Shown here piece by piece: positions 1-36,197 of a stretch of DNA of 64,000 bases (its first letter is position 1; each line of letters opens with the position of its first letter). Location: the IMG/VR virus record IMGVR_UViG_3300022751_000017, positions 27,187 through 91,186 of that record; one strand, 5' to 3'. The DNA is from a virus. The notes under the pieces were generated by a model. It had not been told where the DNA came from. It saw only the letters and a program-made list of their open reading frames with translations, and searched no databases. The translations under genes were made by a program, and so were the position numbers.

Positions 1-393
1 TGGGAGAGGGGGCAAAAATAGCTGTCAGAATTTACAGTATGTGCTTTCTCAGTCGATCTATAAGACACATCCAATAATCATGGGATGCAGTTGCACCCTT
101 TGCAAACAGTAGTGGATGCGGATTCTGGAGAGCTGGCGTATGGATTTGGGATAGTGACTTAGTTTGTACCGCTATTCCCATGGCGGATAGTTTACTTTCA
201 GAAATAGTAATGTCAGATGCCGTCTTTAGTGTGCTTTGCATAACAAAAATGTTTTAAATTTGTGATGCAATTTTATTTAAAGCGAAAAACCTCCCCACCT
301 GCTAAGTGGGGTTTTTCGTTTGTGGCTTAAAGGTAATCATATTTAAAAATACTTTTCAGTTTTTCACCTGTATAAAAATGTGAGAAATATTTT

Positions 394-401
394 TAGCTTT
401 G
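394..401 (+). promoter_or_regulatory. Bacteroidota sigma70 -7 box (TAGCTTTG)
   Basis: Matches TAnnTTTG; intergenic, upstream of the structured leader and OMP gene. Confidence 0.55.
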
Positions 402-539
402 CAAATTACCTTTTAAAATGCTATACGTATGAATATATAAAAAACATTGGCGACTTTTATCTTTTATACGCTTTTCCCTAAATTACCACCTTTACAAAAG
501 CTTATCCACGCTCGATATAAATAGATATGCCTAAATTAT

Positions 540-612
540 GGCGTAACTGTGTCTTTATGCGTGGATGGGTTGTGGTAAACCTAAGGGATGCACAGAGAAC
601 TACAGTTACGCC
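540..612 (+). ncRNA. Structured RNA hairpin, copy 1 (apical loop GTGGTAA)
   Basis: GGCGTAACTGT (540-550) pairs with ACAGTTACGCC (602-612); followed by a T-run; homologous to 811-876. Confidence 0.6.
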
Positions 613-9402: not shown

Positions 9403-9475
9403 GGGAATGTAGCTCAGATGGTAGAGCGCTTGATTGAAGGTCAAGGCGTCAGCGGTTCAAGTCCGTTCGTTCCCG
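9403..9475 (+). tRNA. tRNA-Phe(GAA), CCA not encoded
   Basis: Acceptor GGGAATG/CGTTCCC; D-arm GCTC-AGATGGTA-GAGC; anticodon arm CTTGA-TTGAAGG-TCAAG; T-arm AGCGG-TTCAAGT-CCGTT. Confidence 0.9.
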
Positions 9476-9610
9476 CAATTTTTAAGATCGTGCCGGTGTG
9501 TGAAAAGAACGCGCAGAGAGAAAATCACACCAAACAGTCTCTCCTTGTGAATCCCGAGAGTAGGATGCCTAAGTTTGAGGGCACAATAGAAAGGATTCTA
9601 TCAAACAGGA

Positions 9611-9642
9611 AAAAGCCCCGCTAAATTAATAGCGGGGCTTTT
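9611..9642. terminator. Bidirectional intrinsic terminator
   Basis: AAAAGCCCCGCTA-aattaa-TAGCGGGGCTTTT between the convergent tRNA and groEL units. Confidence 0.85.
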
Positions 9643-9716
9643 CTTATCAGGCCCATTGGGTAGGTCCACACAACAAAACCGAAACACTGGATGGCTTGAC
9701 TGTGGACGAAGGTATT

Positions 9717-11363: not shown

Positions 11364-13049
11364 TTATTCTTCAGTAAAGGTAAGCAGGTCGTTTTGGTGC
11401 ATCACCAGATGCTCGACACCATCTATAGCGATCTCTGCGCCGGCCATGCGTTTAAAGTACACGACATTACCCTCTGATACTATCATAGGTATCTTATCGG
11501 TGCCTGGGCCAACTCTTATAACTCTGCCTTTTACAGGGCGCTCCTTGGCATCCTCTGGAAGTATCAGGTGTGATTCTTTCTTATCTTCTATTGGCAGGAT
11601 AAGAACTTTGTCTCCGAATGGCGTGTGTATTGTGTTGCCCATGTCGTCTTTGTGTGTTTTAAGTAAAATAAAATGTTCGTGTGCTATTATGAAGTTCTCT
11701 CCCAGCAGCGTTATTGGGTATAGTTCCTTAAATGTTGCTACTATCTTTCGGTTACCTTTAATCGGGGTGCAAATGACAGCATGATTCTTATTGACATAGG
11801 CAGCTTTCTCAAGCGCATCCGTCTTTAGTCCTTCTATGCTCGTTTCCAATGCTTGCAATTCTTCTTTCTGTGCAGGGTCTGCAGGGTTAAGCATGCGGTG
11901 CTTGTTGGATAAGCGCTGAAATGTAGCAGTGTACTTACCTGCACCTTCTTTCTTCTTTTCAGCTATTATATTCTGAAGTGCCGGCAGTGTTTTTATATCA
12001 TTGAACGTATAGTCCATGTTATGCAGTTCAGACCTTGGGATTTCTTTTTTCTCAAAAAGTTCAATCTCTGGCTTAAGAAATATGTTCCTGTCAAATGGTT
12101 TGATAGTGCTCAGCTGTGGTATTGGGTTTGTGGATAGATTATTCCTGGATTCCATCATCCCGAAGATTTCTCTTCCGTCATGTGAGAAACAGTTGATCAT
12201 AATGTACGCATACTTTGATTTTCCATCTTTGCCTTTTTTCTCTCGGAGCATGCGGTACTGCTGGTGCTCTACCGTGTGATGGAGTATCGCAAAGCAGCCA
12301 GGGCGAAGCTTAGGGTACATCTTGGCTGCTTCTGAACCTATGCTGACAACTTTAGCATACTGCAGGTTGTACATCATGTGTATATATGCCTCCGGGCGTA
12401 TCAGGCCACTTGCCATTTCAAACCGGCTGCGCTTCTGCTCATTGATGTCTACGCGTACTATTATTTTGTGTGGCGCAGCCTTTTCATTTACTGAGTATAT
12501 ATCACGCTCAAATAATACTTCCATGATGCGGCCATCGACATTAGCTGTGGGGTACATGCCTTGTTCTGCCTTCCTGTATTCTACTGTATCCCCTACCTTA
12601 AATAAAGAGCCTGGAGGGACCGCATGTATTATTCCTTTTTGAGGGACCCCCAGCGTTTCGTCAGGAATGATGATACCGCCATCGCTCACCATTTTGCCAG
12701 ATAGTGGTTCAATGAATAGCCGGTTGAATGGAGTATTATCAACCGACCATATTTCGTTCTCAAAAAGCAGGTCCAGTTCTTCTCCTGCTATCTCTATTCC
12801 GCTGTACCGCTCCTCCGGGTTATTGCGCTCGATCTTGCGATAAGATACGTGTGCACCCACCGGTATTTCTGAGCCTTCGCAGTTGGAAATAACGACACCG
12901 GTTTCGCAAACCACATTTGCATCTTTTGGTATTTCGATACCGTGCTGGTTTACCACTGCAGGATGTTCGTCCGGGCGCACGATAAGGCGCCTTGATATTG
13001 CTCCGCTATTGTTGATGTAGGGGATGCTGGTTAAATTATGTGTGTGCAT
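11364..13049 (-). CDS. groES: Multi-domain (five-repeat) GroES/Cpn10-like co-chaperonin
   Basis: C-terminal canonical Cpn10 (PFGDKVLI...LILP...GRVIRVGPG...IDGVEHLVMHQNDLL), preceded by four degenerate repeats (RRLIVRP..GIEIP; NRLFIEP..GGIIIP; HKIIVRV..SGLIRP; IKPFDRNIFLKP); directly upstream of groEL. Confidence 0.88.
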   Translation of the reverse strand: MHTHNLTSIPYINNSGAISRRLIVRPDEHPAVVNQHGIEIPKDANVVCETGVVISNCEGSEIPVGAHVSYRKIERNNPEERYSGIEIAGEELDLLFENEIWSVDNTPFNRLFIEPLSGKMVSDGGIIIPDETLGVPQKGIIHAVPPGSLFKVGDTVEYRKAEQGMYPTANVDGRIMEVLFERDIYSVNEKAAPHKIIVRVDINEQKRSRFEMASGLIRPEAYIHMMYNLQYAKVVSIGSEAAKMYPKLRPGCFAILHHTVEHQQYRMLREKKGKDGKSKYAYIMINCFSHDGREIFGMMESRNNLSTNPIPQLSTIKPFDRNIFLKPEIELFEKKEIPRSELHNMDYTFNDIKTLPALQNIIAEKKKEGAGKYTATFQRLSNKHRMLNPADPAQKEELQALETSIEGLKTDALEKAAYVNKNHAVICTPIKGNRKIVATFKELYPITLLGENFIIAHEHFILLKTHKDDMGNTIHTPFGDKVLILPIEDKKESHLILPEDAKERPVKGRVIRVGPGTDKIPMIVSEGNVVYFKRMAGAEIAIDGVEHLVMHQNDLLTFTEE

Positions 13050-13066
13050 GAATATGTTTTTGAGTA

Positions 13067-13083
13067 ACCTGCAAAGTGCAGGT
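13067..13083. promoter_or_regulatory. Palindromic operator ACCTGCA-AAG-TGCAGGT, copy 1
   Basis: 18 nt from the groES start codon; three copies found in the window. Confidence 0.7.
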
Positions 13084-21416: not shown

Positions 21417-24062
21417 ATGTTCTTATTAAGGGAATGGATTGAGACCAACGAGGGTGAAAAAAATATTGAGTGGGCTAACCGTATCATCTCATTTGTGCGG
21501 ATGTATATGTCGCCATTGGTCAATCTTGATTCTGCTGAGATGGGTATGAACTACCTGCTCGGGCGCCAGGATATGTCTCCTATACGCAACCTGTTCCAGA
21601 ATCCTATAGCCCTTAATCTGAACAACACCACATACGGTAATACAGGATACGGTAGAGTGTTTGGCCCCAATGGGCAGCCGGTAAAGCCCGAAGAGCGCAA
21701 TCTGCATCCTGAGATGTTAGGTGTTGAATTCCGCTCATTACCTGTAATGGAAAAGCTGAGGAACATGCTGGTGGCGGAGATGAAAAAAATGGGGGTAGTG
21801 CTCACCGTGAAAAGCGATGACCCTACCGCTACCATCAACAGGAAAAAGGACGAGGCGTTCATTAAGGACAGGCACAATATAGAAGGGCTTTTAAATTATA
21901 TTTATACCTCCATAGGCGAAGCCCCGTTCAAGATAGAAGAGCACGAGGCAAGGTTCGGGGAGAAGCCAGACAATGGCAACACTCAGGATTTTCAGCGTAT
22001 GAGTCTAAATCCTGGGAATCCATCTGATGTGGATTTCTTTATGCGTAATTTCCATAAGCTGGATGCGGAAATGGCGGCGGAGAATCCTATTAATTACTTC
22101 ATGAGATTTAATGAGGTAGAGGATATATTCTTTGAAAACTGGACTACAGACCTGGTGGCAAAAAAAGCTATTGCCGGGCAGCAGTACGTAAGTAAGCTAA
22201 ATGGAGCAATAAAGTTTGATTATCTCACTCCGGAGACAACGTACATATACGGTGGTGGGAGGAGAAAGGATTTTGATGATGCAAATGCCAAGGCATACCA
22301 GCAGAATATTACCATAAAAGATCTACTTGACAGGATAGGTGATGAATTCGATTTTAATAAAGAGCTTAATCTGCTTTTTCAGGCAGTTTATACCTGCAGC
22401 CAAGGATCAATTGATATTACCGGTATAGGTACAGACGCCCGTAATGGATGGTTTTGTTCAGCGCGCACAGGCACTAAGTACTCCTACCGGGATTTTATGG
22501 ACTTTAAGGTGTCTTTCGGATACATGGAGTGGATCAGCGCAAATGAGACAGATTATGGTGCTGAAGCAAACCTAACAGGTGACAGAAAGTTCGATGAGGA
22601 CAAGAGCACATTTTCTTATGGTGGGTCTGGAGGGGAAGAGTCTCCTGAAAAAAGGTACGCAAAAAAAGCGCGCTACGAGGTGCCTACATACAAGGCCTAC
22701 TATCTTGTTCTTAGTTCTTATGAGCAGCGGATATTTGATTTTGGCAAAGTAACTTACCAGCAGATAGAAGGGTACAATGACTTTAACTCAAACTGGACCA
22801 TACTCACTTACAAAGAGATAGGAGATAGTATTGCTATCAACTGCGCCCCTTTTGTAGACATCATCAATGAGTGCTGGTATAAATGGAAGTACGAGGTTCG
22901 CAAGGCAAAGCCCAGGGGGACTGATTACAACTATGACAGCCTTCTGGATATTGCTGAGGATACCTTTTCTGATACCAACATGACCCAGGCAGATAAGATA
23001 CAGAAGATGGTGTCTTGGCTAGATGCATCTGCCAATGGTATGTGGAAATTTCCGCAGATAGATGGGAAGATAGTAGCTATGTCCAACAATGCGCTGAATA
23101 TAGATAAGCCAAACGGACTGACTGCAGAGATCATGCGCTGGTGGGAAATGCTCATCAAGTCATGGGAGCAGATGCTATCGGTAGTAGGCCTTGATGCGCC
23201 CCTAAGGCAGGGTGATCCCGGCAATGCAAGGGATAGTATGAATAATCAGTTCAAGGCTCTGGAATATAGCCAGAACAATACTTATTATATCCCGGACAGC
23301 CTTACGTATATGGCGCAGAAGCTGGCTACGCGTACTATGCTGCAGGTTCAAGACATTATTCAGTTCAAAGATCATGATACCCTGGCATTTAAATTCCTTG
23401 CGGATGCTGTTGGAGAGGATTGTCTTGCCAGGATATCGCAGCTAGGCAAGAAGGCCATGCACCGGTATGGTATATTCGTGGAGAGCCTTAACCAGGCGCC
23501 ACAGAAGGCTAAGCTGGATGCGAGAATAGATGCCGCAATACAGAATGGTAAGATCAGCAATGCGGAAGCGCTAATGCTGGATGAAATAAAAAGCCTCAAG
23601 AGCAAGGCGCTAATGCTGGCCTATTTTGAGCAGCGCAATGCATCTCTTGTGCAGAAGAACGCTATGGAAATGCAGCAAGCCCAGGCGCAGCAAGCCCAGG
23701 CGCAGCTTCAGGGTGAAAAGGAAAACATTTTGCTCAAGGGCAACCTTGAGATTGAGAAGGCAAAGGTTGAAGGTAGCTTCGCGCTGCAAGGGCACATGAT
23801 CACACAGCAAGGCGGCATGGCTAAGCAGGAGATGAAGCATAGTGCAGATAGCAGGCAGATATACGAACAGGCTCAAGCCAATGTGATGGAGCAGCAACAG
23901 AGCCTTAATGATACCGGCAAGACTACACCGCCGGCGCAATCCGCAATAGTGCCTACGCCATACAGCAACCCTATTAACCAGATACCGCATCAGTCCGGCA
24001 TCCAGCAGTCGATGGCTGATTCCCAGCCGATGAGTACTGAACAGGCTGCGATGATTCCATAA
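21417..24062 (+). CDS. Portal protein (crAss-like)
   Basis: 881 aa, helical, Gln-rich C-terminal barrel (QQAQAQQAQAQ); position upstream of scaffold and MCP. Confidence 0.82.
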   Translation: MFLLREWIETNEGEKNIEWANRIISFVRMYMSPLVNLDSAEMGMNYLLGRQDMSPIRNLFQNPIALNLNNTTYGNTGYGRVFGPNGQPVKPEERNLHPEMLGVEFRSLPVMEKLRNMLVAEMKKMGVVLTVKSDDPTATINRKKDEAFIKDRHNIEGLLNYIYTSIGEAPFKIEEHEARFGEKPDNGNTQDFQRMSLNPGNPSDVDFFMRNFHKLDAEMAAENPINYFMRFNEVEDIFFENWTTDLVAKKAIAGQQYVSKLNGAIKFDYLTPETTYIYGGGRRKDFDDANAKAYQQNITIKDLLDRIGDEFDFNKELNLLFQAVYTCSQGSIDITGIGTDARNGWFCSARTGTKYSYRDFMDFKVSFGYMEWISANETDYGAEANLTGDRKFDEDKSTFSYGGSGGEESPEKRYAKKARYEVPTYKAYYLVLSSYEQRIFDFGKVTYQQIEGYNDFNSNWTILTYKEIGDSIAINCAPFVDIINECWYKWKYEVRKAKPRGTDYNYDSLLDIAEDTFSDTNMTQADKIQKMVSWLDASANGMWKFPQIDGKIVAMSNNALNIDKPNGLTAEIMRWWEMLIKSWEQMLSVVGLDAPLRQGDPGNARDSMNNQFKALEYSQNNTYYIPDSLTYMAQKLATRTMLQVQDIIQFKDHDTLAFKFLADAVGEDCLARISQLGKKAMHRYGIFVESLNQAPQKAKLDARIDAAIQNGKISNAEALMLDEIKSLKSKALMLAYFEQRNASLVQKNAMEMQQAQAQQAQAQLQGEKENILLKGNLEIEKAKVEGSFALQGHMITQQGGMAKQEMKHSADSRQIYEQAQANVMEQQQSLNDTGKTTPPAQSAIVPTPYSNPINQIPHQSGIQQSMADSQPMSTEQAAMIP

Positions 24063-24105
24063 ATAAAAGTGCCCTCAATATTGAGGGCACTTTTATTTAT
24101 GGAAT
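24054..24105. repeat. Perfect 52-bp palindrome (probably also a bidirectional terminator)
   Basis: ATTCCATAAATAAAAGTGCCCTCAAT|ATTGAGGGCACTTTTATTTATGGAAT; spans both convergent stop codons. Confidence 0.95.
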
Positions 24106-24386
24106 TTCCTGACCGTTTTCTTTTCAGGGACATGTGCCCTGCTTATATCACGGAGAGCCCTGCTTGATTTATTTTTCCTATAGTCTATATAGTTTCTATT
24201 GTTGCTGCAACCTTTATTCAGATTGCATGAATGGCATAGCGTCTGCAGGTTTGTATAGTAATTGGTGCCTCCTTTTGACAAGGGTATTATGTGGTCTATA
24301 GTAAGATTGAATCTGGCGTTGCAAAGCAGACACATGTTATTATCTCTCTTGAAAATTGCCTCTCTTACTGCTTTGCGTATGGGCAT
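24093..24386 (-). CDS. HNH endonuclease
   Basis: CLLC...DHIIPLSKGG..Y..NLQTLCHSCN..K. Confidence 0.92.
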   Translation of the reverse strand: MPIRKAVREAIFKRDNNMCLLCNARFNLTIDHIIPLSKGGTNYYTNLQTLCHSCNLNKGCSNNRNYIDYRKNKSSRALRDISRAHVPEKKTVRKFHK

Positions 24387-24390
24387 AGCG

Positions 24391-24693
24391 TTAGTCTATT
24401 TTTTTACCTTTGATAGCTAAGGATATGAGTGCAGAGAAGGATATGCCGGTATCGTATGATTTACAAAGTATCTTATCGGATACGAATTTAGGGATATCAA
24501 TTTCGTGAGACTTTTCTATCTTATCTATGGCTATACCATGGCATGGGGCACACTTGGATACAGACCCGTACTCTTTCATTATCTTATGGTGAATGTACAT
24601 GCCAATAGATATCTTCATTTCGGCAGCTTCTGCATAGAAAATGGCCCATTCTGCCTCTGTATACCGGAGCCTGAGTTTAAAACTATTATTCAT
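24391..24693 (-). CDS. Putative tandem ribbon-helix-helix DNA-binding protein
   Basis: Two RHH-like patterns, KLRLRYTEAEWAIF...KISIGMYIH and HEIDIPKFVSDKI...GISFSALI, linked by CAPC. Confidence 0.55.
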   Translation of the reverse strand: MNNSFKLRLRYTEAEWAIFYAEAAEMKISIGMYIHHKIMKEYGSVSKCAPCHGIAIDKIEKSHEIDIPKFVSDKILCKSYDTGISFSALISLAIKGKKID

Positions 24694-24710
24694 TAAGGAA
24701 GTTGTGAGTT

Positions 24711-24727
24711 ACCTGCAAAGTGCAGGT
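24711..24727. promoter_or_regulatory. Palindromic operator, copy 3
   Basis: ACCTGCAAAGTGCAGGT, 18 nt from the 24693 start; 24705-24731 matches 13061-13087 at 26/27 nt. Confidence 0.7.
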
Positions 24728-24767
24728 AAAGCTATGCAAATTCATTCTTATTACCAATAGTGGTTTA

Positions 24768-24775
24768 TACTTTTG
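24768..24775 (+). promoter_or_regulatory. -7 box TACTTTTG for the capsid operon
   Basis: Consensus match upstream of 24792. Confidence 0.5.
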
Positions 24776-24791
24776 ATATGAATTATATTTT

Positions 24792-25841
24792 ATGGCAGTC
24801 ACAGACACGAACACACAACCAGGTCAGGCGGCGGAACAGGTAAATGCACCAGCAGTAGATAACACTACAGTTGTTGCAGATACTGCTATTCCAGCCCAGG
24901 AACCTGCGGATGCTGAAAAGCCGAAGATTGATATTGACGCAATAGATGAGGATACTCAGCTGCGCCTTATCAATAAAGCGCTTGGCTCAAATTATAAAAC
25001 TCTGGATGAGGCTAAGCCGAAGGCTGTAAGGTCCCCGGAAGATATAGCTGCAGAGAAAGAAGCTAAGAAACAAAAAGCGCTGGAGTGGGCTCTAGGTACC
25101 GGCAAGACAAAGAAGGATGAATATGAGAGAGCAATCATAGAGCGCTCTAAGAATACCCGGGATATTGCCATGGCGTTATTTGCAGAGCAGGAGCGCGCAG
25201 AAAATCCAAAGATCAGTGAAGAAGAGATCGCGGCGCAATTTTCTGATGAATACCATGAAGACCTGGATATTGACTCTCCTCTCCGTAAGCGTGCTCTGGC
25301 AAGAATGGATAAAGTTGCAAAAAGTTACCTCGCAGAAATCACCGGTCCTATTGATAACATAGAAGCTGAATACGACAACTACATTTCAGATACAGAGAAG
25401 TACACCGGCTACCAGAAGCAGATAAAGAATGTCGCAAGTGCATTGCCCAAGGAGTTAGTGGTTTCAATACCATACACAGGGGCGGATGGCACCGAGACAA
25501 CATTGGAATATAAAGTCCCGGTTGAAGATAATGTGATGACTGCAGTGCGCAAAGAGTTCCTGGACGCCAATACATACCTGGCTATTTCCGGGTCTGGCAG
25601 AGAGATAAAGGATGCTGACATTGCCAACGAAATGACCGCGGCTATCGAAAACCGGATATTGCGCAAGGCGATACCTAAGATGCTGGCCGATCATGGCGAA
25701 AAGGTTGCCAAAGACTTCGAAGCGCATCTTAAGGCTATACCAAATACAGGGAATAACCTCGGATTTGGGAATACCGCACGCCCCGGGGAGGCAAAAAAGC
25801 CACCTGAATATACAGCACTCCGCGCGCATCAGAAATACTAA
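24792..25841 (+). CDS. Scaffold-like protein preceding the MCP
   Basis: Acidic, helical, disordered N-terminus; position between portal and MCP. Confidence 0.6.
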   Translation: MAVTDTNTQPGQAAEQVNAPAVDNTTVVADTAIPAQEPADAEKPKIDIDAIDEDTQLRLINKALGSNYKTLDEAKPKAVRSPEDIAAEKEAKKQKALEWALGTGKTKKDEYERAIIERSKNTRDIAMALFAEQERAENPKISEEEIAAQFSDEYHEDLDIDSPLRKRALARMDKVAKSYLAEITGPIDNIEAEYDNYISDTEKYTGYQKQIKNVASALPKELVVSIPYTGADGTETTLEYKVPVEDNVMTAVRKEFLDANTYLAISGSGREIKDADIANEMTAAIENRILRKAIPKMLADHGEKVAKDFEAHLKAIPNTGNNLGFGNTARPGEAKKPPEYTALRAHQKY

Positions 25842-25889
25842 AAAATAACACCCATAAAATAATACAATAACTAAAACAATTTAAAAACG

Positions 25890-27464
25890 ATGATAACCTA
25901 CGCTTTAACTCCCCAGCATGCTCCACGTCAGATATTTTCCGTTGGTGAGGCACAGACTCAGTTCCAGCCGTTCTCAGATGTCTACAGGCAACTGTGGGAT
26001 TTCGTGGAAGATGGCGGATTAGATGCCTTCGGGATAAACAAGGAAGACCTGGCGCGTTGGCGTAAAAACTTCCGTGAGGGAGTGGTGAACATTGGTGGTA
26101 AGCCATCAGAGATAGACTTCTTCCGTATGATGATGGGTGGCACTCCTAAGGAGACAAACGCCTCTTCAATCAGCGTAGAGTATAACAGTGCGTTGGACTA
26201 CAACATATACGCAGAGAATGATGCTACCGGCACCAACGGCGCTGTCACCAATGCATACTTTGGAGACCTGATAAACGGCACTTACAATGGTAACTACGTG
26301 GTGTTCGACATTGCGGTTGATACTTATGCAGATAACGGTACCAAGTCCAATATAAATGTTGGCGACCAGATATTCAACTACATAGATGGTAAGTATCTGG
26401 TGGTGATCAAGAAGGATGTAACCACTCCTTTTGCGCACCATATCTACTGCGCACCTTTCGATGGTAACTATACGCCTCAGATATATGCGAAGCAGCCAAT
26501 GCAGCCCAACCATATACAGCTGGTGTCTGGTTATAGCGATGCTACTACATCTGCGCCGCACAGTGAGTGGGAAACCCTCGGTTACATCAAGGAGTATAAC
26601 CCATTCTCTCTTCGTACAGACTGGGAAACACCGCGTAACCTGGAGAAGCCATACAAGGATATTCTGCAGTTCCCGATCATATTCGATATGCATACCGGTG
26701 CAGAGATGGACTCATGGGACTTCAAAGCGATGGCTGATGGCCGCGAGCGTATGATCATGGGTGAGAACATGATGTTCTTCACAGGTGAGCAGCTGACCAA
26801 TGTAAGCCTGATATCAAATACATATACAAACCAGTATAACGGTTTTGAAGGGCTTCTGACCACCATCTGGTATGGCGGCGGCAATATACAGCAGTATGAC
26901 AATAGCTATGGTTACGACCTGGATGTTGACTTCATGCAGATGGTATTCTCAAACGATGCACTGAAGAAATCTCAGGAGTTCCTGTTCCTGGCCGCAAAGC
27001 GCTGGATATACATGATGGAGCGCCGTAGCCAGGATATGTTTAAGAATAACTCAGGGGCATGCACTTTTGATACGTTTGAGCGTATGGGTGATGAGCGTGC
27101 CGATCTGAAGCGCCTGGGCATCAACTCATACGAGTGGAGAGGTTCAACAATGCATATCAAGGAAGTCGGTGCATGGTCTGACAGCCGCTGGGTAGGTAAT
27201 GCTTATTTCCCCGCTATGGCTATAGTTCTGCCAGGCGATGGTCTTACAGACAGCAAGGGCAATAAAGTATCTCCGGTTGAGTACTGGATACCAGCAGGCC
27301 GTAGAGTGTCTGGAACATGGCAGGAAGAGTGGAGAGACCACATGAAGCTTTCAGATAAGGCTGATAAGTTCTCAGGTACCATTACTCATGACATTATGAT
27401 GAGCGTGAACGGAGTGGAAAATATGTGGGCAGTGATGCCGAAATACATTGTGAGCAATTCTTAA
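25890..27464 (+). CDS. Major capsid protein (HK97 fold, crAss-like)
   Basis: 524 aa; position; ENMMFFTG...GFEGLLTTI..GG motif; strongly C-ending codon bias suggesting high expression. Confidence 0.8.
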   Translation: MITYALTPQHAPRQIFSVGEAQTQFQPFSDVYRQLWDFVEDGGLDAFGINKEDLARWRKNFREGVVNIGGKPSEIDFFRMMMGGTPKETNASSISVEYNSALDYNIYAENDATGTNGAVTNAYFGDLINGTYNGNYVVFDIAVDTYADNGTKSNINVGDQIFNYIDGKYLVVIKKDVTTPFAHHIYCAPFDGNYTPQIYAKQPMQPNHIQLVSGYSDATTSAPHSEWETLGYIKEYNPFSLRTDWETPRNLEKPYKDILQFPIIFDMHTGAEMDSWDFKAMADGRERMIMGENMMFFTGEQLTNVSLISNTYTNQYNGFEGLLTTIWYGGGNIQQYDNSYGYDLDVDFMQMVFSNDALKKSQEFLFLAAKRWIYMMERRSQDMFKNNSGACTFDTFERMGDERADLKRLGINSYEWRGSTMHIKEVGAWSDSRWVGNAYFPAMAIVLPGDGLTDSKGNKVSPVEYWIPAGRRVSGTWQEEWRDHMKLSDKADKFSGTITHDIMMSVNGVENMWAVMPKYIVSNS

Positions 27465-27520
27465 GCTCACAATGTATTTATATAAATCAGTAAAAAATCA
27501 CACAACAAAAATAAAAAATC

Positions 27521-28531
27521 ATGAGTACTACAACATTGCCAAGGGAAGTCGCAGAAGTAGCTAATATTCATCAGAACATGGTGTTTGAAATGATCAGCCG
27601 GTCAACATCCGGATTTATCCGCAAGGATGACGTAGGCAAAGTCAATCCGCGCAAAATGAATTCAGCGAAGCGCTTCGACCTCCCGGTTACATCAAGGCAC
27701 CATATAGGTAAGGGTAAGGGGTATATTAAAACACAGTATGTTCCTGGCGCCGATACTATATATGTGGATGATTATGTAGATGCAGATGGTAAAATACAGT
27801 CCGGACTTAAAAAGCAGGGGATAAATCTGGAACTGGAGCGTGAGCGTGCAATACAGATGAATATCCATTTTAAGTTCGGCATACTTGATCTCAGGCAATA
27901 TGGAGAAGATCCAATGCTGGTAGAGTTCGTGAATAAACATGAGATGAATGCGGAATCTGCAGCCGGCAAAAACCCTGACCGTACCGTAAGCCGCATGTTC
28001 CAGTTCCAGCCAATGCGTAAAGAGGAGAAGGCTGCTAAGCGCACTGTAGGCTTTGAAGAGCAGTATGAGGCGATGTCAATTATAAAAGCACTTCGTACAA
28101 AGACGGCGGCTGGATTTGAATATGACGTAGCACAGGTTGATGCGATCATTAATGTGCTGGGCCTTAAGACAGCCGATCTCGGTGACAGCGACACTGCGCA
28201 GAAGTTTGAGATAATACTCAAGGCCGCATCTCAGGATGGCATTGAGTTCCTTAAGATAGTGAATGATGCACTGAACAGTACGCGCTTGACAATAGCAAAG
28301 GCATTGGGTATGGGTATCGTTAAGATAAGCAGCAAAGGAGCTGATATAAAGGCTGGTGAAGGTGCGCAGACTAGGGAGGTTTTAAAATTCAAAAACGGAA
28401 TGGATGAATCTGCGCGCATGCAGGCGCTCGCTATTCATTTGCTTGGCGGAAGCCCACAGGCGCAAAACGATCTTAATACCATCATCAGCGAGGTAGAGAT
28501 CGGAGAGATAAGTGCGCTCTCAAAGAAGTAA
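27521..28531 (+). CDS. Conserved post-capsid protein
   Basis: IHFKFGIL...DPMLVEFVNKH pattern resembles the gene that follows the MCP in crAss-related phages. Confidence 0.6.
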   Translation: MSTTTLPREVAEVANIHQNMVFEMISRSTSGFIRKDDVGKVNPRKMNSAKRFDLPVTSRHHIGKGKGYIKTQYVPGADTIYVDDYVDADGKIQSGLKKQGINLELERERAIQMNIHFKFGILDLRQYGEDPMLVEFVNKHEMNAESAAGKNPDRTVSRMFQFQPMRKEEKAAKRTVGFEEQYEAMSIIKALRTKTAAGFEYDVAQVDAIINVLGLKTADLGDSDTAQKFEIILKAASQDGIEFLKIVNDALNSTRLTIAKALGMGIVKISSKGADIKAGEGAQTREVLKFKNGMDESARMQALAIHLLGGSPQAQNDLNTIISEVEIGEISALSKK

Positions 28532-28566
28532 TACAATAAAATAAAAAAACATAATAATATTATACC

Positions 28567-29508
28567 ATGTCCATCCAATTAGTTCAATCAAATCAGCTAG
28601 CTGAAGTTAACGGAGAGACCTTCGTTAACAGCTTTTATCCTAACGGGCTACAGAAAGCAATCCCATGTCGCAGCCAGGTAGTCGGGGCGTACTGGAAAAT
28701 ACCGGTAACACTTGGTAACCGAGTGGTGAGCTATAATGAACTGGTGGCTACCGATGCTACGAAGCCAGTGCCTGATGCCTTCAAGATACTGCGTCTTAAA
28801 GATGCTCTGGATGCAAATACCGAGTATGGTATCGTAATTGCGGATGCAGATGCCGTAACTACTAACTCATTTGTGGACAACTGTAACGGCTGCTGCGGCG
28901 CTACACCTGTGATGGCTACGGTGACAATCCCTCAGCCAATACAGGAAAGTGATCCACAGACTGCCATTGCTGGTGTGAACTCATTCATTTTTGCCTTCCC
29001 GCAAAATCCAAACAGCCTCCTGTTCTCTATACCATTCCCATGGTTCAATGGTGCCGGCCCTGTATCTCCTTATGCGCCAACTGGCATCACTACTGCTGCG
29101 CAGTTTGTTACCTGGGCGAATACTAACTGGGAAGAATATGGTACCTGGTCAAGCCCTGCAGCTAATGTAGTGAAGCTTGTGTCCACTCCGAGTGCGGCTA
29201 TATATGTCCTCAGGTCTGGTATGCAGGTAGCATTGACTCCGGCCAATTTCTGTTTTACACTGACGTCATTCTCTACACCCGCAGCAATTAACGGAGTGGG
29301 ATTTGGTGCTGGTCTGCCTCAGAAGTTCCCATCATTTGCGCTGACCAATGCGAATCAGGCAACTCTTATACAGCGCTTGAAGCCACTTATGCCCGGTGCT
29401 ACATTTACCATTACGACAAATCACCTGCAGATAGCAACAGTTCAGGCGCAGCCCAAACTGTATAACAATGCGAGCGTGATAGCAACGGCAGCCACCGGTG
29501 TTTGCTAA
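28567..29508 (+). CDS. Putative auxiliary capsid/structural protein
   Basis: 313 aa, Ala/Thr/Pro-rich with a CNGCCG linker; followed by a terminator. Confidence 0.55.
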   Translation: MSIQLVQSNQLAEVNGETFVNSFYPNGLQKAIPCRSQVVGAYWKIPVTLGNRVVSYNELVATDATKPVPDAFKILRLKDALDANTEYGIVIADADAVTTNSFVDNCNGCCGATPVMATVTIPQPIQESDPQTAIAGVNSFIFAFPQNPNSLLFSIPFPWFNGAGPVSPYAPTGITTAAQFVTWANTNWEEYGTWSSPAANVVKLVSTPSAAIYVLRSGMQVALTPANFCFTLTSFSTPAAINGVGFGAGLPQKFPSFALTNANQATLIQRLKPLMPGATFTITTNHLQIATVQAQPKLYNNASVIATAATGVC

Positions 29509-29541
29509 TAATATACAAGCTAATAAAAATAATTAACCCAA

Positions 29542-29572
29542 TAAAGGGATACCTTAAACGGGTATCCCTTTA
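29542..29572 (+). terminator. Intrinsic terminator
   Basis: TAAAGGGATACC-ttaaacg-GGTATCCCTTTA. Confidence 0.75.
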
Positions 29573-29584
29573 ATAATTTATACA

Positions 29585-31972
29585 ATGCCAGCACTACCAA
29601 TTACAACATCACCTGATATTACATCGCTTAATTTCGGGATACTATACGATATCTCTGCCGGTACGCCGTCAATTACACTGACTAACTTATCCGTGGGTAA
29701 TCCATCCGGATCTACCCGGCTGAATAATTGTACCTGGTGGTATAAAATATACTCTCCTAATGGTGTAGCTATTCATGAGGGTTCTGAATCTACACCGGAT
29801 GTTGATAATAATACATGGTCAACATTGACAATCCCTGCAGGTTCATGGCCAACGCCTTTCGGTATACCTCCATATGGGCAGGTTGAGTTCAGCTGCGCAG
29901 TGCCATATGTGGCTACATTGTTTGTAAAGGACGGTGTAGGCAACATATACAGTACGGCACCCAAGTCAACACTTCTGTGCCGGCCAAATGGCAATACCGA
30001 TAAGACAAAGGGGAACTTTGGCGCAGCAGAAGTGGGAATGCAGACACAGTGTGCCCAGGCAAAAATATATTCTTCAGATACCACCAATTACACTTATCAG
30101 GGCATAATTGGTAGTTCACAGGCGAGTACCTGGACGCTTGCATATCCAATGGATGCGGATGGTAATCTGCCTGACCCTGTAGTAGTCCTTAATAAGCCTA
30201 CGGTAATATTCCCTGTAGGATATAGCTCTGAAGGTTACCAGCTATATCTCAATACATTTTGTACATACAATACAGGCGACAATGGCGCCGTAAAAATACA
30301 GTACAAATTTAAGGAAGTGTTCTCTGTATTCTGTAATGTAGACCTGTGTGCTATACAGTGTGAAATAGACAAGCTATATGCACAGCTGTCACCTAAATGC
30401 GGTACTGTGACCAATCCTGAATTGCAGGACAGGCTGTTCCGTATAGGTGTGCTAATGGATAAGTGCCTTACTGGCATAGCACAGCCTTTATGCGGCATAG
30501 ACGTACCGGCAACCATACAGGAGATAAAGCGCATAGGTTGCTTTGACTGTGATTGCATGTGCGGTACAGGAGGGGGGATCAATCCGGTAGGGAATACTAC
30601 GGGCATAATCACTTTCGACACAGAAACGGTAGGTGATATCACCGCAGTTATAACCAATGTAGGTGACAACTATCTCTTGCATCTGGAAGTGCCGAATAGT
30701 GGAGGTGTTCCTAATCTGCAGCAGGTAAGCCAGGTAGGTAATGTGACCAACAGGCCTTTATATAGCGGAGTGCAGGCATCATATTATTCAAGTATTGCCT
30801 CAAGAAATGTAAATGTCGCCAATGGTGCGGACATCCTTATTGCACTTGATAGCTCTACAGGTACCAATTACCTGCGTATAAAGGGTGCTACATCTGGTAT
30901 TGTTCAGCTTACAGCTGCAGATGTTACTACCCCATATACTATGAAGCTGCCAGCGGCGCAAGGTACCGGGTATTTGAAGAACCCGGGAGATGGGTTGCTT
31001 GTGTGGGATGCAAGTGGCGGCGGCGGATCTCAGAACCTGCAGCAGGTTACTACTGTAGGCAATGAAACTACCAACCCTATAAACCTTAAGGGTGCAGGAA
31101 CAAAGCTTATGCAGCTAACATCAGGCGGGTTTGCTGTATACCAATCTACCGGTGACCTGTGGGCTGGGCTTGATACATCTCTGGGGATAGCAAGATTTAT
31201 CTTGAGGGGAGGCGCCGCAGGTACAGGAACTGTTAATATGCAAGCGCCGAGCGCAATATCCGCTTCGTATGACTGGATATTCCCGGCTGCGCAGGGAGGC
31301 GCTAATACGTTGCCGCTGAATGATGGTACGGGCCAGCTGTCATGGTGGCTCGCAAATTTACAGAATGTAACAAATAATGGGTCAATAACAACAAATACGA
31401 TCACAGTAGGTGCCTCTGCAGGTTCTAATGCAAAGCTATCTGCGACTGATGTGACAGTGTATAATGCTTCTGTCGTTGTTGCTAGATTGTTAGGGGTAGG
31501 AGGTATTGGTATTTTGACATTAAGAGAATTCACTGGGTTCATTGTCAACTTGAGGGCAGACCCCGGCGGGATGACTTCTAATTTGGATTTTTTCTTCCCG
31601 AGATTTAAATCTGGCACATTGGCATTGAGTGGTGCCGGAACTGCTGTGACCTTTGCGTTGAATGTCGGTGCCGGCACTGGTGCCACTGTAGTAGATAATT
31701 TATCAAATGATAACGGTGGATCTTTCACAATTACAACAGGTACAAGTCCTGCAGTAGGGAGGGTCATTTTAGTATCATACTCTATGACATATCCTACAAC
31801 ACCGTATAGGCATGTTGTGATATGCCCTGGTAATGCTGCTACGGCAGCGTTAAGTGGCGCGCAGAATGTATATGCGAATGAAGGCTCTTTGAATAGTTTT
31901 GAAATTATATCCGGTGCCACCCCATTGGCTGCAAGTACAGTATATCGCTGGAATTATGTAGTTAGTAACTAA
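29585..31972 (+). CDS. Tail fibre/hub protein
   Basis: Cys-rich attachment domain, then three NLQxVxxxGxxT fibre repeats and a beta-rich tip. Confidence 0.7.
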   Translation: MPALPITTSPDITSLNFGILYDISAGTPSITLTNLSVGNPSGSTRLNNCTWWYKIYSPNGVAIHEGSESTPDVDNNTWSTLTIPAGSWPTPFGIPPYGQVEFSCAVPYVATLFVKDGVGNIYSTAPKSTLLCRPNGNTDKTKGNFGAAEVGMQTQCAQAKIYSSDTTNYTYQGIIGSSQASTWTLAYPMDADGNLPDPVVVLNKPTVIFPVGYSSEGYQLYLNTFCTYNTGDNGAVKIQYKFKEVFSVFCNVDLCAIQCEIDKLYAQLSPKCGTVTNPELQDRLFRIGVLMDKCLTGIAQPLCGIDVPATIQEIKRIGCFDCDCMCGTGGGINPVGNTTGIITFDTETVGDITAVITNVGDNYLLHLEVPNSGGVPNLQQVSQVGNVTNRPLYSGVQASYYSSIASRNVNVANGADILIALDSSTGTNYLRIKGATSGIVQLTAADVTTPYTMKLPAAQGTGYLKNPGDGLLVWDASGGGGSQNLQQVTTVGNETTNPINLKGAGTKLMQLTSGGFAVYQSTGDLWAGLDTSLGIARFILRGGAAGTGTVNMQAPSAISASYDWIFPAAQGGANTLPLNDGTGQLSWWLANLQNVTNNGSITTNTITVGASAGSNAKLSATDVTVYNASVVVARLLGVGGIGILTLREFTGFIVNLRADPGGMTSNLDFFFPRFKSGTLALSGAGTAVTFALNVGAGTGATVVDNLSNDNGGSFTITTGTSPAVGRVILVSYSMTYPTTPYRHVVICPGNAATAALSGAQNVYANEGSLNSFEIISGATPLAASTVYRWNYVVSN

Positions 31973-31980
31973 TCAAAAAC

Positions 31981-32763
31981 ATGACACCAATCAACATATT
32001 CACTATCTGGCAGGCATTAATGTCTGAGGTAAATGTACAGCAGGGCGGCCAGATACGCCCTGTGCAGGATTTCCAGAACTGGTATAATGCCGTATCACTG
32101 GAACTGTTCCGTGAGAAGGTAGCAAAGGCAGAAATCAATCAGATGACTGATGATGACCTGTCTCCGTTCCTGCTCTCAATGAATATATCGGTAGGCCAGG
32201 TATCTGGGCAGAGATACGGGCTTGTCCCATATCCCGCCAATTATGAGGGATTCTCTAACATGCGCGTGCTCAGGCCTAAGGGTGCTACAGCATGCGCGTG
32301 TGATGGCTCATTGCCTATTATGGACAAAGGGAAATGCGTACAGGTAGTAGATCCAGATTATGCAGAGATGGCAGCGCGATTCGCCGGTACTAACCTTGCC
32401 GAGTTCACAATGAATAAGGTGGATAATCAGGCGTGGGGTAATTGCCTTCAGCATGACACTAAGGGGCCGACTTTTGACAGCCCAAAGCTTACGCAATACT
32501 CTTCTGGGTTCCAGGTGGCGCCGGCAGGAATTTCCATCGTGGTACTGGATTATTACAGGCTACCCCGCAGTGCTGTATTTGCATATACGGTATCCAATGA
32601 TGATATTGTTATTTATGACAGCAATAATAGCGTGCAGCTAGAATGGAGCTCTACGCTGGAGAATGAATTCCTTACGCGCCTGAAGAAAAAGTATGCATTG
32701 CATGTTCACGACAGCGAAACATACCAGATGGCTGTTAATGATAAAAAAGAACTGGTACCTTAA
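31981..32763 (+). CDS. Tail ring/adaptor protein
   Basis: NVQQGGQI...FQNW, PANY, LDYYRLP...FAYTV...SVQLEW pattern of crAss-type ring proteins. Confidence 0.7.
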   Translation: MTPINIFTIWQALMSEVNVQQGGQIRPVQDFQNWYNAVSLELFREKVAKAEINQMTDDDLSPFLLSMNISVGQVSGQRYGLVPYPANYEGFSNMRVLRPKGATACACDGSLPIMDKGKCVQVVDPDYAEMAARFAGTNLAEFTMNKVDNQAWGNCLQHDTKGPTFDSPKLTQYSSGFQVAPAGISIVVLDYYRLPRSAVFAYTVSNDDIVIYDSNNSVQLEWSSTLENEFLTRLKKKYALHVHDSETYQMAVNDKKELVP

Positions 32764-32789
32764 ATTAATTGTATTAATTTTATACCCAC

Positions 32790-33464
32790 ATGGCAACATC
32801 ATTAAAGCAAGCGGCGGCAAGGGCAATGGACCTGTACTATCAGGACTATGCTCCGCGTGACTCATTTTTTGATGTTCCTGATTTTAAGTTTCATTTCGCC
32901 TCGGTATACAGTGATCTGTTCGATGCCGATTTCCAGATGTTCAGAAAGATGACAAGGCAGGAAACGGGATTTAGTAATGTAGAGATAACTGCGCAGTGGC
33001 TTGTAAAGGAGAAAGTGAAAGTAGAGATTTCAGAACATGAGCCGGTGTATTATGCAACTCCTTCAAGCTGTGTATTTGGGTTCGGGTATGATGCCTTCTC
33101 TTATTCTCTGGATTCTGTCAGGCCAGCGAGCCCATGTGGCTGCCGGCTGCAGAAGATATCGAGAGATGAGGTGCCATACTTGGATATTGCCCCTACTACC
33201 TCTCTTTGCTATTATTGGCTAGAGGCTAATAATAAAATATCGTTTCTTAATGATGTCAAGGAGGTCTTCATATCGTACATCCCATCTGTAGATGCGAATA
33301 ATGATGATTGTGTGATCAGTGACCTGATAGTTAGCAAGGCTATACGGGCGACTCTTGATATCATGTTTAAATCAAAAAATGGCAATGTTATAGACGTTGT
33401 CAATGACGGTAATTCAAATCCTACAGCACAGAACCAGCAAAACCCAGCACTAAATAAACCATAG
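32790..33464 (+). CDS. Tail ring/tubular protein
   Basis: Position and helical-beta-helical pattern ending DVVND. Confidence 0.6.
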   Translation: MATSLKQAAARAMDLYYQDYAPRDSFFDVPDFKFHFASVYSDLFDADFQMFRKMTRQETGFSNVEITAQWLVKEKVKVEISEHEPVYYATPSSCVFGFGYDAFSYSLDSVRPASPCGCRLQKISRDEVPYLDIAPTTSLCYYWLEANNKISFLNDVKEVFISYIPSVDANNDDCVISDLIVSKAIRATLDIMFKSKNGNVIDVVNDGNSNPTAQNQQNPALNKP

Positions 33465-33466
33465 CC

Positions 33467-33733
33467 ATGAGCAACGAAAACATAAAACTGAACTACTTTC
33501 AAGCCAGGTCAAATATATTTGCCGGTACCATGATGCGCAGGGAATCCTGGGCGGAGTGTCGTAAGGTACGTAAATGGGAACAGTCAGATGCAGAGTATGT
33601 GGGGTACTTCCCGGATATGATCGTTGAAGACTGTCCAAAAAAATGTGATTGCCAGATTGGTCCATTCATTCCCACAAGTGAGGATGAGAATGGTATCGAC
33701 TGGATTATTGTTGAAGCAGACCAAAAAATATAA
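33467..33733 (+). CDS. Tad2/DUF2829-like protein (candidate immune-signal sponge)
   Basis: LNYFQA....AG..MRRESW ... FIPTSED....DWIIV matches the F.EA...G..V.R..W ... PS..D.LA.DW family pattern. Confidence 0.65.
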   Translation: MSNENIKLNYFQARSNIFAGTMMRRESWAECRKVRKWEQSDAEYVGYFPDMIVEDCPKKCDCQIGPFIPTSEDENGIDWIIVEADQKI

Positions 33734-33738
33734 TCATC

Positions 33739-34053
33739 ATGGGCAGAGAACTACCGCAAGAGAAAGTACAACGCATTATTAACCAGAATTCAAGCGGCCT
33801 GGAAGAAGAGAATAAGACTTTGCGTGATCAGATACGCTCTATAGAGGAGTCTAATGACACAATAAAAGGACTGTCGGATATCTGTGAAGGGCTCAATGCT
33901 AAGATTAGCCTGCTTGAGTCGGACATTGCAGAAAAAGATGCGCTCATAGAGAAGCTGAACCAAGCCAATTTTGAACTCATTGAAACTGCCAAGAAATCAC
34001 CAGCAGAAGACAGTGCAGAATCAAAGAAGACCGCCACGAAAAATAAAAAATAA
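33739..34053 (+). CDS. Coiled-coil protein
   Basis: Heptad pattern across most of the 104 aa. Confidence 0.6.
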   Translation: MGRELPQEKVQRIINQNSSGLEEENKTLRDQIRSIEESNDTIKGLSDICEGLNAKISLLESDIAEKDALIEKLNQANFELIETAKKSPAEDSAESKKTATKNKK

Positions 34054-34059
34054 ATTCAG

Positions 34060-35148
34060 ATGCCTACCCAGTACGGAAAACAGGTAAAGACCATAAGCGA
34101 TTTTGTACGCACCTTCAGCCTTAAGCAAGGTAACACGAAGGCTGCGTACTTTGTGCGTAACCTGGAGTTTGCCGCATGGGCTTGGAAAGAAATGTTCAGG
34201 AAGAGCATCTGGGAGATAAAAACAGTAGTGCTTACCTTGGATAAAGATCATAATATCCGTATCCCGGATGATTGTGAGCGAATGGTAAATGTCAGTGTGG
34301 TAGACCGATTTGGCAAGCTGCAGCCGCTGTCGTACAACCCCAATATGAGCACTGTGGAAGTGATGTGTGAAACTAATTCTTGCGCATGTACTCATTGTCA
34401 TGGGAAGGATACCTTATGTGCGGCGGTGGAGAACATCTCAGTTGTATTTGAGGATATAATCATAGATGGGGAGACTTACCAGAAGGTCACTTATATAAAG
34501 GCAGATGGCTGCGGGAATATTATTAAAGAAGAGCACGTACCTGTAACAGAGGCGATATCCGAGAAAGTTGTTACAACAATTGTGACTACTTCTTTGTGTA
34601 AGGTAGAGGTAAGTGATAAGGGGTGTATATTGCCAACTGCCCCAAATATTAATATGTTGCAGACCTATTGCGGCTATAATGGGTCCATGCTGAATAATGG
34701 ATACCGTGGTAATGGGTTGGGTTATAACGCTTACCGCAGTTTAATACCGGTGCCATATAATTATTATGGACACTGGAACTGGAATGCTGCATGCCAGGAT
34801 ATTATCCATATATTCCGTAGCGCTGCAAATAACTGTACTTATATCAACCAGCAGGATACATGCACTGTAAACTGCGCCCAGGAACAGAATGACATTCATA
34901 AAGTTATTTTATCGTACCAGACCATAGGAGCAGAACCTGGCGTTGAAATATTAATACCGGAATATGCAGAGATGGCCATCAGTATAGGTATATTATACCA
35001 GCAGGCATTATTCAACCCTAAGGACATGGATAGGAATAATGCAATGCTCTACAAATTCAGGGCCGCAAAGAAAGACGTTGACCGGCATCTCAACCCTATC
35101 CGCATGGATGACATCATTAAAATTCAAACACAGCCACATTTGTGGTAA
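34060..35148 (+). CDS. Tail ring/tubular protein with a Cys-rich insertion
   Basis: IKTVVL...IPDD...VSVVDRFGKLQPL and ILSYQTIG...IPEYAEMAI motifs. Confidence 0.7.
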   Translation: MPTQYGKQVKTISDFVRTFSLKQGNTKAAYFVRNLEFAAWAWKEMFRKSIWEIKTVVLTLDKDHNIRIPDDCERMVNVSVVDRFGKLQPLSYNPNMSTVEVMCETNSCACTHCHGKDTLCAAVENISVVFEDIIIDGETYQKVTYIKADGCGNIIKEEHVPVTEAISEKVVTTIVTTSLCKVEVSDKGCILPTAPNINMLQTYCGYNGSMLNNGYRGNGLGYNAYRSLIPVPYNYYGHWNWNAACQDIIHIFRSAANNCTYINQQDTCTVNCAQEQNDIHKVILSYQTIGAEPGVEILIPEYAEMAISIGILYQQALFNPKDMDRNNAMLYKFRAAKKDVDRHLNPIRMDDIIKIQTQPHLW

Positions 35149-35160
35149 AAACAGGAGCGC

Positions 35161-35433
35161 ATGTATTTCATAGAAGTAAAGACCACAGGCCATATAGACA
35201 GGCCAGAGATAGTTCATCGCGAGCATATAGAGAAACTGAATAACTACCTGCAGACTGGTGTTTCTATTGAGTTCGGGCGGTATGAGAAACTGGCAGAAGA
35301 CCGGCGCGGCAATACAAGCATCATAAGAAATGTATGTAGCCATAGCACTACTAACTATCAATACAATTTTGTACTTACCCTGATAACTACTTTGTGTTGC
35401 GAAGGCGAGCATCCAGATAAATTTTTGCCATAA
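35161..35433 (+). CDS. Hypothetical protein
   Basis: 90-aa ORF filling the gap. Confidence 0.5.
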   Translation: MYFIEVKTTGHIDRPEIVHREHIEKLNNYLQTGVSIEFGRYEKLAEDRRGNTSIIRNVCSHSTTNYQYNFVLTLITTLCCEGEHPDKFLP

Positions 35434-35444
35434 AATATAATATC

Positions 35445-36191
35445 ATGCTACCATTAGGACTTATAGGCGGAGGATTGCTTGGCGCAGGGGAAATTGCATA
35501 CGGGCTCATCAACCAGTCAAAGGCAAGAAAGGCCGCGGCAGCAAACATCCGGCCGAAATACGAAATACCTGACGAAGAGCGCCAGGCTGAAAATCTTGCT
35601 CAGGCGGAGAGTATGGCGGGGCAGGGCATGTCGGCAGCATCGCGTCAGCAGCTGTATCAGAACACCGCCAACATGCAGGGGCAGTCAATAGATGCTATAC
35701 TCCGCGCCGGTGGCGACCCGAATGCTATAAGCAACCTGGCTAATAACACGCAGAACCAGCTCAACCAGAGTTCTATCTATGACAACCAAGCTAGGTTGCA
35801 AAATCTGGGTAACCTGCAGGCCTTACGTTCGCAGATATCATCAAGGAGGTCTGCAAGTAAAGATAAGGCATGGCAGCTCAATCACTACCAGCCATGGGCG
35901 GACCGTGCACAAGCTATTGCCCAGCAATCGCAGGGTGCGCAGAATATGATCAACTCGGGCGTGAACCAGTTGGGTATGGGCTTGGTAAGCGGCCTCGGCA
36001 GCCTGTCAAAGCCTGCTGGAATACCATCGCAACCGCAGGGCATGCCGCCATCACCATGGCAGATGCCTATGCAGCCACAGGCGGACTATTCTCAGGGCAA
36101 TAATTTTTACCCAACACAGCCATTTGGTATGATGGCTGACAACAATACAGAACAGGGCGGCCCTTCATGGAATGGCTGGTCATTTCAATAA
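35445..36191 (+). CDS. Internal virion/ejection protein 1
   Basis: Gly-rich hydrophobic N-terminus; Ala/Gln-rich helices; no Cys. Confidence 0.7.
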   Translation: MLPLGLIGGGLLGAGEIAYGLINQSKARKAAAANIRPKYEIPDEERQAENLAQAESMAGQGMSAASRQQLYQNTANMQGQSIDAILRAGGDPNAISNLANNTQNQLNQSSIYDNQARLQNLGNLQALRSQISSRRSASKDKAWQLNHYQPWADRAQAIAQQSQGAQNMINSGVNQLGMGLVSGLGSLSKPAGIPSQPQGMPPSPWQMPMQPQADYSQGNNFYPTQPFGMMADNNTEQGGPSWNGWSFQ

Positions 36192-36197
36192 ATAAAC

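Follow-up and report, generated by a model that had tools for sequence, protein, structure and literature searches.

A concatenated co-chaperonin of five Cpn10-like units, encoded next to groEL in an uncultured phage, with a probable internal start for free GroES

INTRODUCTION

In textbooks, the lid of the chaperonin cage is a symmetric heptamer of GroES. To our knowledge, the two-domain Cpn20 is the only natural exception, and its fit to a seven-fold ring is a matter of continuing debate. The phage locus studied here raises the question of what lid would be built if more than two such domains were carried by one chain, and whether the same gene would also supply free GroES. A preliminary description had divided the 561-aa product of one open reading frame (ORF) into five Cpn10-like units and had proposed that an internal start releases the last of them. 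The window, that is, the whole stretch of DNA analyzed here, spans 64,000 nucleotides; its parent IMG/VR virus record (IMGVR_UViG_3300022751_000017) is 91,186 bp long, with an estimated completeness of ~70%.

RESULTS

The 561-aa ORF and groEL look like one operon

This phage stands very far from the cultured ones. Among nine neighboring genes tested, the large terminase was the sole product recognized by PHROG, and the large structural-region ORFs of 881, 524, 336, 795, and 627 aa (21417-38081) did not match any PHROG at a threshold of E 1e-5. The host of this uncultured phage is probably a member of the Bacteroidota. Gene starts in the window are preceded by A-rich leaders, without a Shine-Dalgarno sequence. 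The phage groEL product is a canonical group I chaperonin without the C-terminal GGM tail, and its best PDB match was 9rwr, a reconstructed ancestral Fibrobacteres-Chlorobi-Bacteroidetes chaperonin (E 2.8e-154).

The groEL gene begins 27 nt downstream of the 561-aa ORF (Table 1), in the order that the preliminary description had given, and it also follows in 7/7 related loci with downstream sequence. A near-identical 19-mer, GCACTTTGCAGGTWACTCA, was found at 13061-13079(-) and at 24705-24723(-), each time 12 nt upstream of a minus-strand gene start, the second copy preceding a 100-aa gene at 24693; two copies compare with 0.02 expected. Together with its flank, the 19-mer contains an internal inverted repeat (ACCTGCA/TGCAGGT). 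Judged from its sequence and placing, this box is probably an operator or promoter element of the groES-groEL operon, common to the gene at 24693. Given this upstream box and a shared terminator after groEL, the 561-aa ORF and groEL look like one operon. A count of internal sigma-70-type promoters (11 sites versus 9.0 expected) was uninformative, Bacteroidota promoters being different from the sigma-70 type. On the other strand, a tRNA-Phe(GAA) gene (9403-9476(+)) lies just past the groEL terminator. A second Cpn10 gene was not found elsewhere in the 91-kb record, which is estimated to be ~70% complete.

Table 1. Features of the groES-groEL locus, in coordinates of the window
Feature	Coordinates	Strand	Size, evidence, or remark
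Concatenated co-chaperonin, five Cpn10-derived units	11364..13049	-	561 aa, 63.5 kDa; Pfam, hhalign
Unit 1, aa 17-104, Cpn10-like, motif GIEIP	12738..13001	-	Pfam 14.7 bits; hhalign
Unit 2, aa 105-188, Cpn10, motif GIIIP	12486..12737	-	Pfam 28.2 bits; hhalign
Unit 3, aa 189-300, divergent Cpn10 fold with extra helices	12150..12485	-	T4 gp31 Z 7.5; bridge hhalign 93%
Unit 4, aa 315-466, Cpn10 barrel interrupted by hairpin	11652..12107	-	Cpn20 7ekq_S Z 8.9; bridge hhalign 95%
Insertion of ~90 aa in unit 4 at the mobile-loop position, aa 332-421	11787..12056	-	AF2
A-rich, unstructured leader-like coding stretch before the internal ATG	11643..11666	-	PWM, MFE fold
In-frame ATG of Met470, probable internal start	11640..11642	-	Junction Met in 27/27 five-unit representatives
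Unit 5, aa 470-561, canonical GroES	11367..11642	-	92 aa, 10.2 kDa; Pfam 65 bits; 1wnr Z 10.5
groEL, 539 aa	9717..11336	-	Pfam Cpn60_TCP1 1.7e-62
19-nt box with inverted repeat, 12 nt upstream of the 561-aa ORF start	13061..13079	-	Motif count
Intrinsic terminator, 14-bp stem and T run, downstream of groEL	9610..9643	-	End of two-gene operon

Five Cpn10 units follow one another in a single chain

The 561-aa chain almost certainly has five Cpn10 domains. Relative to the gathering cut-off of Pfam Cpn10/GroES (PF00166), which is 21.1 bits, units 5 and 2 scored above and unit 1 below (Table 1), and units 3 and 4 had no direct Pfam Cpn10 match. Profiles of the units, drawn from an alignment of 16 homologs, were then compared with hhalign. 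Units 1, 2, and 5 matched one another closely (u1-u2, 99.6%; u1-u5, 97.6%; u2-u5, 98.0%), and direct comparison with unit 5 was weak for the middle units (72% for unit 3 and 4% for unit 4). These were bridged by a stand-alone family of two-unit proteins, equivalent to units 3 and 4: its unit-3-like half aligned at 100% with unit 3 and at 93% with unit 5 (E 3e-7), and its unit-4-like half at 98.6% with unit 4 and at 95% with unit 5 (E 3e-8). In one protein of this family, P0047, the part following the hairpin scored 26.2 bits for Pfam Cpn10. Thus, the segment-by-segment assignment to Cpn10 held directly for units 1, 2, and 5; for units 3 and 4 it failed when tried directly and held by way of the two-unit family.

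By sequence, unit 5 was the only part of the chain to match the PDB (phmmer, 3.8e-15), and the chain showed no specific sequence affinity to Cpn20. Weak Pfam matches to TTD and Nitrophorin (E 0.01-0.07) were taken as noise. The units almost abut, with gaps of 0-3 residues at the 1-2, 2-3, and 4-5 junctions and a 14-residue linker between units 3 and 4.

Predicted structures led to the same division. From shallow input alignments, of 9 and 17 sequences, AlphaFold (AF2) returned a model of the whole chain with a pLDDT of 76 and a pTM of 0.64, and a model of residues 189-469 with a pLDDT of 86 and a pTM of 0.77; their strand patterns fit five small beta-barrels. The unit 5 model superposed on Thermus Cpn10 (1wnr) over 80 residues with an rmsd of 2.3. 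For unit 3, the best single-domain match was T4 gp31 (97 of 107 residues, model 1..112), and unit 2 matched a GroES-like ER domain (Z 5.2). When the model of units 3-4 was compared with 48,161 PDB chains, the tandem Cpn20 7ekq_S ranked first, and the superposition, which took in both units, covered 163 of 194 residues. The whole-chain model likewise matched Cpn20 7ekq_R (Z 9.9, 174 residues) over two adjacent units within 227..560. These pairwise Cpn20 superpositions, with rmsd values of 4.6-5.1 Å, suggest that unit pairs 3-4 and 4-5 are arranged as neighbors in a ring would be.

In a Foldseek search of the PDB with units 3-4, only co-chaperonins came out on top, at weak E-values (best, 6e-3). 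In BFVD, the top matches were two-domain phage proteins of 183-200 aa (E 1e-5 to 3e-6), one of them from Cellulophaga phage phi18:3, with dozens of phage GroES below them, and almost all matches were co-chaperonins. Look-alikes in the ESM Atlas were viral clusters of ~195-250 aa, some with Cpn10. Collectively, the division into five Cpn10-like units made in the preliminary description was borne out by Pfam for units 2 and 5, by hhalign for units 1, 2, and 5, and by the two-unit bridge and AF2 for units 3 and 4.

Three units keep a mobile-loop motif and one carries a predicted hairpin in its place

The mobile loop of Cpn10 holds a hydrophobic tripeptide that binds GroEL. The four loop motifs reported at the outset, GIEIP (aa 37-41), GIIIP (aa 125-129), GLIRP (aa 215-219), and HLILP (aa 494-498), are present and conserved across homologs. 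The motif G-[ILV]3-P is shared by 17 homologs in units 1, 2, and 5, which probably keep GroEL-binding mobile loops. The loop of unit 3 is altered across homologs and reads SG[ILV]xLSP, followed by a conserved helix.

Unit 4 has at this position the helical insertion of ~90 aa that had been noticed before. In the AF2 model, it is made of a coil and two antiparallel helices of ~30 residues each (aa 355-386 and 392-419), which would be roughly 45 Å long if regular. Its sequence is poorly conserved save for N388-P389 in the inter-helix loop, P389 being invariant or nearly so. Structural matches of the hairpin to the RNAP beta insertion, MacA/AcrA, and TRIM5 (Z 6-7.4) reflect generic coiled coils and were set aside as functionally meaningless.

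The most conserved unit is unit 3, in which 23 columns reach at least 90%. H258 and E261, in a motif HHxxE that follows the GD strand (12267-12278(-)), are invariant not only in five-unit proteins but also in the distant two-unit family. Do they form a metal site, or do they make a contact with unit 4?

An internal ATG at the unit 4/unit 5 junction resembles a true start

As the preliminary description stated, Met470 is encoded by an ATG directly preceded by the 20-mer quoted there. A start-context PWM was trained on the 63 gene starts of the window; it ranked the Met470 ATG 4th of 420 in-frame internal ATGs, with a score about that of the median true start. When only the related loci were used to derive the PWM, each of the eight junction ATGs was within the top 0.2-9.6%. 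Hydrophilic linkers are naturally A-rich, a caveat to any such leader signal. Every codon position of the ORF was scanned, and the u4/u5 junction was among the top five in 5/7 DNA sequences, the highest scores in the window's own ORF falling in the junction region; since the whole ORF was scanned, this indicated that the signal is not general to inter-domain linkers. The MFE fold left positions -45 to -5 relative to the ATG unpaired, and the coding leader resembles the leader of the separate groES gene at the split locus L007 (see below).

Comparison among homologs pointed in the same direction. A Met lies within 15 residues of the u4/u5 boundary in all 27 representatives of the five-unit protein, most of them drawn from 50%-identity clusters. 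At the other unit starts, a Met was present in 3, 3, 2, and 5 of the 27, the background being 0.27 per 15-aa window. The 27 sequences are related, and so the count does not amount to 27 independent trials. The linker around the junction Met is unconserved, and the position of the Met drifts. Four fused relatives of other architectures (P0098, P0124, P0143, and P0146) have no junction Met.

One part of the original proposal did not stand, namely that a specific leader is shared between this ATG and other starts. The octamer ACACACAA occurs five times in the window versus 2.1 expected, 7/100 shuffles doing as well, and ACACA was found within 25 nt of only 4/63 gene starts. Lacking enrichment, ACACACAA was ruled out as a specific leader motif, which leaves the A-rich leader without Shine-Dalgarno sequence as the general signal. 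The internal start itself gained strong comparative support: the junction Met is conserved, its leader is start-like, split forms end at this very point, and L007 has its own groES. On these sequence grounds, it is likely that the conserved in-frame ATG470 is used as an internal start and gives a free 92-aa GroES from the 561-aa ORF.

The hairpin-bearing pair is the constant element of a family shaped by fusion and fission

A profile of units 1-4 retrieved 243 relatives from 1.84 billion representatives, among which >70 clusters of ~265-aa proteins correspond to units 3 and 4 alone. In this wider family, the number of fused units is 2, 3, 4, or 5, and some members have a PDZ domain. Besides the five-unit form, the architectures include u3-u4 alone, Cpn10-u3-u4, u3-u4-GroES, u3-u4-GroES-GroES, and PDZ-u3-u4-GroES. 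Such variety indicates that the constant element is the hairpin-bearing pair u3-u4 rather than the number five. In P0076 and P0122, the order from the N-terminus is PDZ, hairpin-bearing Cpn10 pair, and GroES; judged by their domain make-up, these would be co-chaperonins with a peptide-binding module. Contigs for the two-unit and PDZ relatives were found neither in the viral_contigs and genome_contigs scans nor by tblastn against phages.

At the split locus L007, units 1-4 end at a stop codon and are followed, after a 41-nt spacer, by a separate 93-aa groES and then groEL. Four more four-unit proteins stop at the same u4/u5 junction. The split forms are scattered over a quick maximum-likelihood tree, whose well-supported branches force at least four fusion/fission changes. 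Another homolog, L003, has an extra C-terminal extension of ~80 aa after its GroES unit (L003:9639-9884).

DISCUSSION

A lid made of one long chain and free subunits

The 561-aa chain is very probably the lid partner of the phage GroEL. We propose that five Cpn10 barrels are joined head to tail, in the manner of Cpn20, and are co-transcribed with the phage groEL, the transcription unit having its own promoter/operator and its own terminator. On the same mRNA, ribosomes would also initiate at ATG470 and produce the free 92-aa GroES. The abutting units, together with the Cpn20-like geometry of the 3-4 and 4-5 pairs, lead us to infer that the long chain could take five adjacent places of a seven-place lid. 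Two free GroES subunits made from Met470 would then fill the remaining two places; in the split relatives, a four-unit chain would go with three free subunits. Such a lid would be intrinsically asymmetric, with a single hairpin per lid; it would be lopsided and only partly single-chain because the internal start would also release the last domain. The hairpin may tether the lid to GroEL or serve as a client-contacting arm. The preliminary description went further and suggested a lid tailored to large virion proteins; such clients, the 524-aa protein among them, are conjectural candidates. Taken as a whole, a concatenated co-chaperonin with an internal start and a lid of one chain plus free subunits is the account that we consider probable on balance.

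The precise 5+2 ring is a more tentative part, to which we give somewhat less than an even chance. Family members differ in how many units they fuse (2 to 5) and must differ as well in how many free subunits would complete a lid, so that "5+2" is at best one case of a hairpin-bearing chain completed by enough free GroES for seven places. Exact filling of seven places is not even obligatory, since engineered single-chain GroES/Cpn20 concatamers of 6-8 units function with GroEL, according to the account of Guo et al. given in PMC5780408.

Could the full-length chain be the only product? It would then cap GroEL alone, occupying 5/7 sites and leaving a gap, or do so with host GroES, and the junction Met would be a relic of fusion. 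The host surely has GroES, concatamers with a wrong unit number still work with GroEL (PMC5780408), and some fused relatives do without the junction Met. However, the Met is kept in 27/27 representatives while the linker is unconserved and the position of the Met drifts, and the junction is among the most start-like contexts of the ORF in 5/7 DNA sequences. Moreover, repeated fission at this junction is easier to tolerate if the downstream cistron is already translatable. For these reasons, we regard an exclusively full-length product as unlikely.

Two further readings would change the role of units 1-4. In one of them, seven chains make an ordinary GroES heptamer through unit 5, with units 1-4 lying outside the dome, for example as a client-recruiting or assembly-scaffold arm. 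It draws on unit 5 being the only fully canonical GroES and on relatives that bear other N-terminal modules such as PDZ, but it sits badly with the GroEL-binding loop motif retained by units 1 and 2, with units that abut almost without linker as in Cpn20, with neighboring units that superpose on Cpn20, and with the split relatives, whose units 1-4 carry no GroES. This makes it distinctly improbable. The other reading sees in units 1-4 no productive lid but a multivalent binder of GroEL, which would block the host GroEL or re-target it. Several mobile loops on one chain would give high avidity, and the hairpin could jam cycling; yet a phage groEL, to all appearance fully functional, always accompanies the gene, and in many architectures the module is joined to a true GroES, so that we hold this reading to be very improbable indeed.

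The concatenated chain with an internal start may also be placed in a broader frame, which is speculative and in our view has a rather low chance of holding in full. The u3-u4 pair, with one coiled-coil hairpin, would be the core of a large undescribed viral family, completed by 0-2 N-terminal Cpn10 units and 0-2 C-terminal GroES units, or by PDZ. It would create one special lid position, its hairpin acting as a permanent GroEL tether or hinge, or as a prefoldin-like client arm, and internal initiation would set how much free GroES is made per long chain. If this is true, asymmetry and the delivery of clients would be built into the chaperonin lid of this family.

A natural five-domain chain, with one domain specialized and a free subunit probably made from the same gene, would offer a compact two-gene system in which to study the working of an asymmetric lid, the number of GroEL-binding loops required, and the possibility that a lid bears an arm for tethering or for binding clients. 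Gene fusion and fission can also be followed cleanly in this family, at a point where both states seem to be kept viable by an internal start, in a host group without Shine-Dalgarno signals.

Comparison with known co-chaperonins

In-frame internal initiation yields a long and a short product from E. coli ClpB and IF2 and from phage lambda C/Nu3. As in these cases, the products proposed here would be nested in one ORF, share a common C-terminus, and co-assemble, the phage start being a candidate from sequence. The differences are that the present host group has no Shine-Dalgarno signals and that the internal start would set the stoichiometry of a ring.

Among phage co-chaperonins, T4 gp31 and RB49 CocO resemble the lid proposed here in that they remodel the GroEL cage; gp31 differs as a single-domain homo-heptamer that uses the host GroEL, whereas the phage described here brings its own. 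Tandem Cpn10 proteins exist in phages of Bacteroidota, such as the "Chaperonin cpn10" of Cellulophaga phage phi18:3 (UniProt S0A356, 200 aa) and phrog_13932. Unit 5 matches phrog_13932, whereas a search of the phage collection gave no sequence match to units 1-4. These two-domain proteins differ from the five-unit chain by having two units in 183-200 aa, which is too short for the insert of ~90 aa. Engineered concatamers have in common with the lid proposed here that covalently linked Cpn10 domains serve as a lid, but they are artificial and made of identical units, with no specialized unit. The literature covered, which included few subscription journals, contained no report of more than two natural Cpn10 units in a chain, of a hairpin-bearing unit, or of a GroES internal start.

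The closest parallel is the plastid/apicoplast Cpn20 and the Chlamydomonas Cpn11/20/23 lid (PDB 7ekq; PMC5780408). In both systems, Cpn10 domains stand head to tail in one chain, and the Chlamydomonas lid is, like the one proposed here, a mixed lid in which multi-domain and single-domain subunits together reach seven places. Cpn20 has two units and belongs to the plastid lineage, whereas the phage chain has five, with a hairpin of ~90 aa in place of one mobile loop and with highly divergent units 3-4. Its free subunit, moreover, would come from the same gene by putative internal initiation and not from a separate gene. We rate the 561-aa chain as a new variant among tandem, Cpn20-like co-chaperonins.
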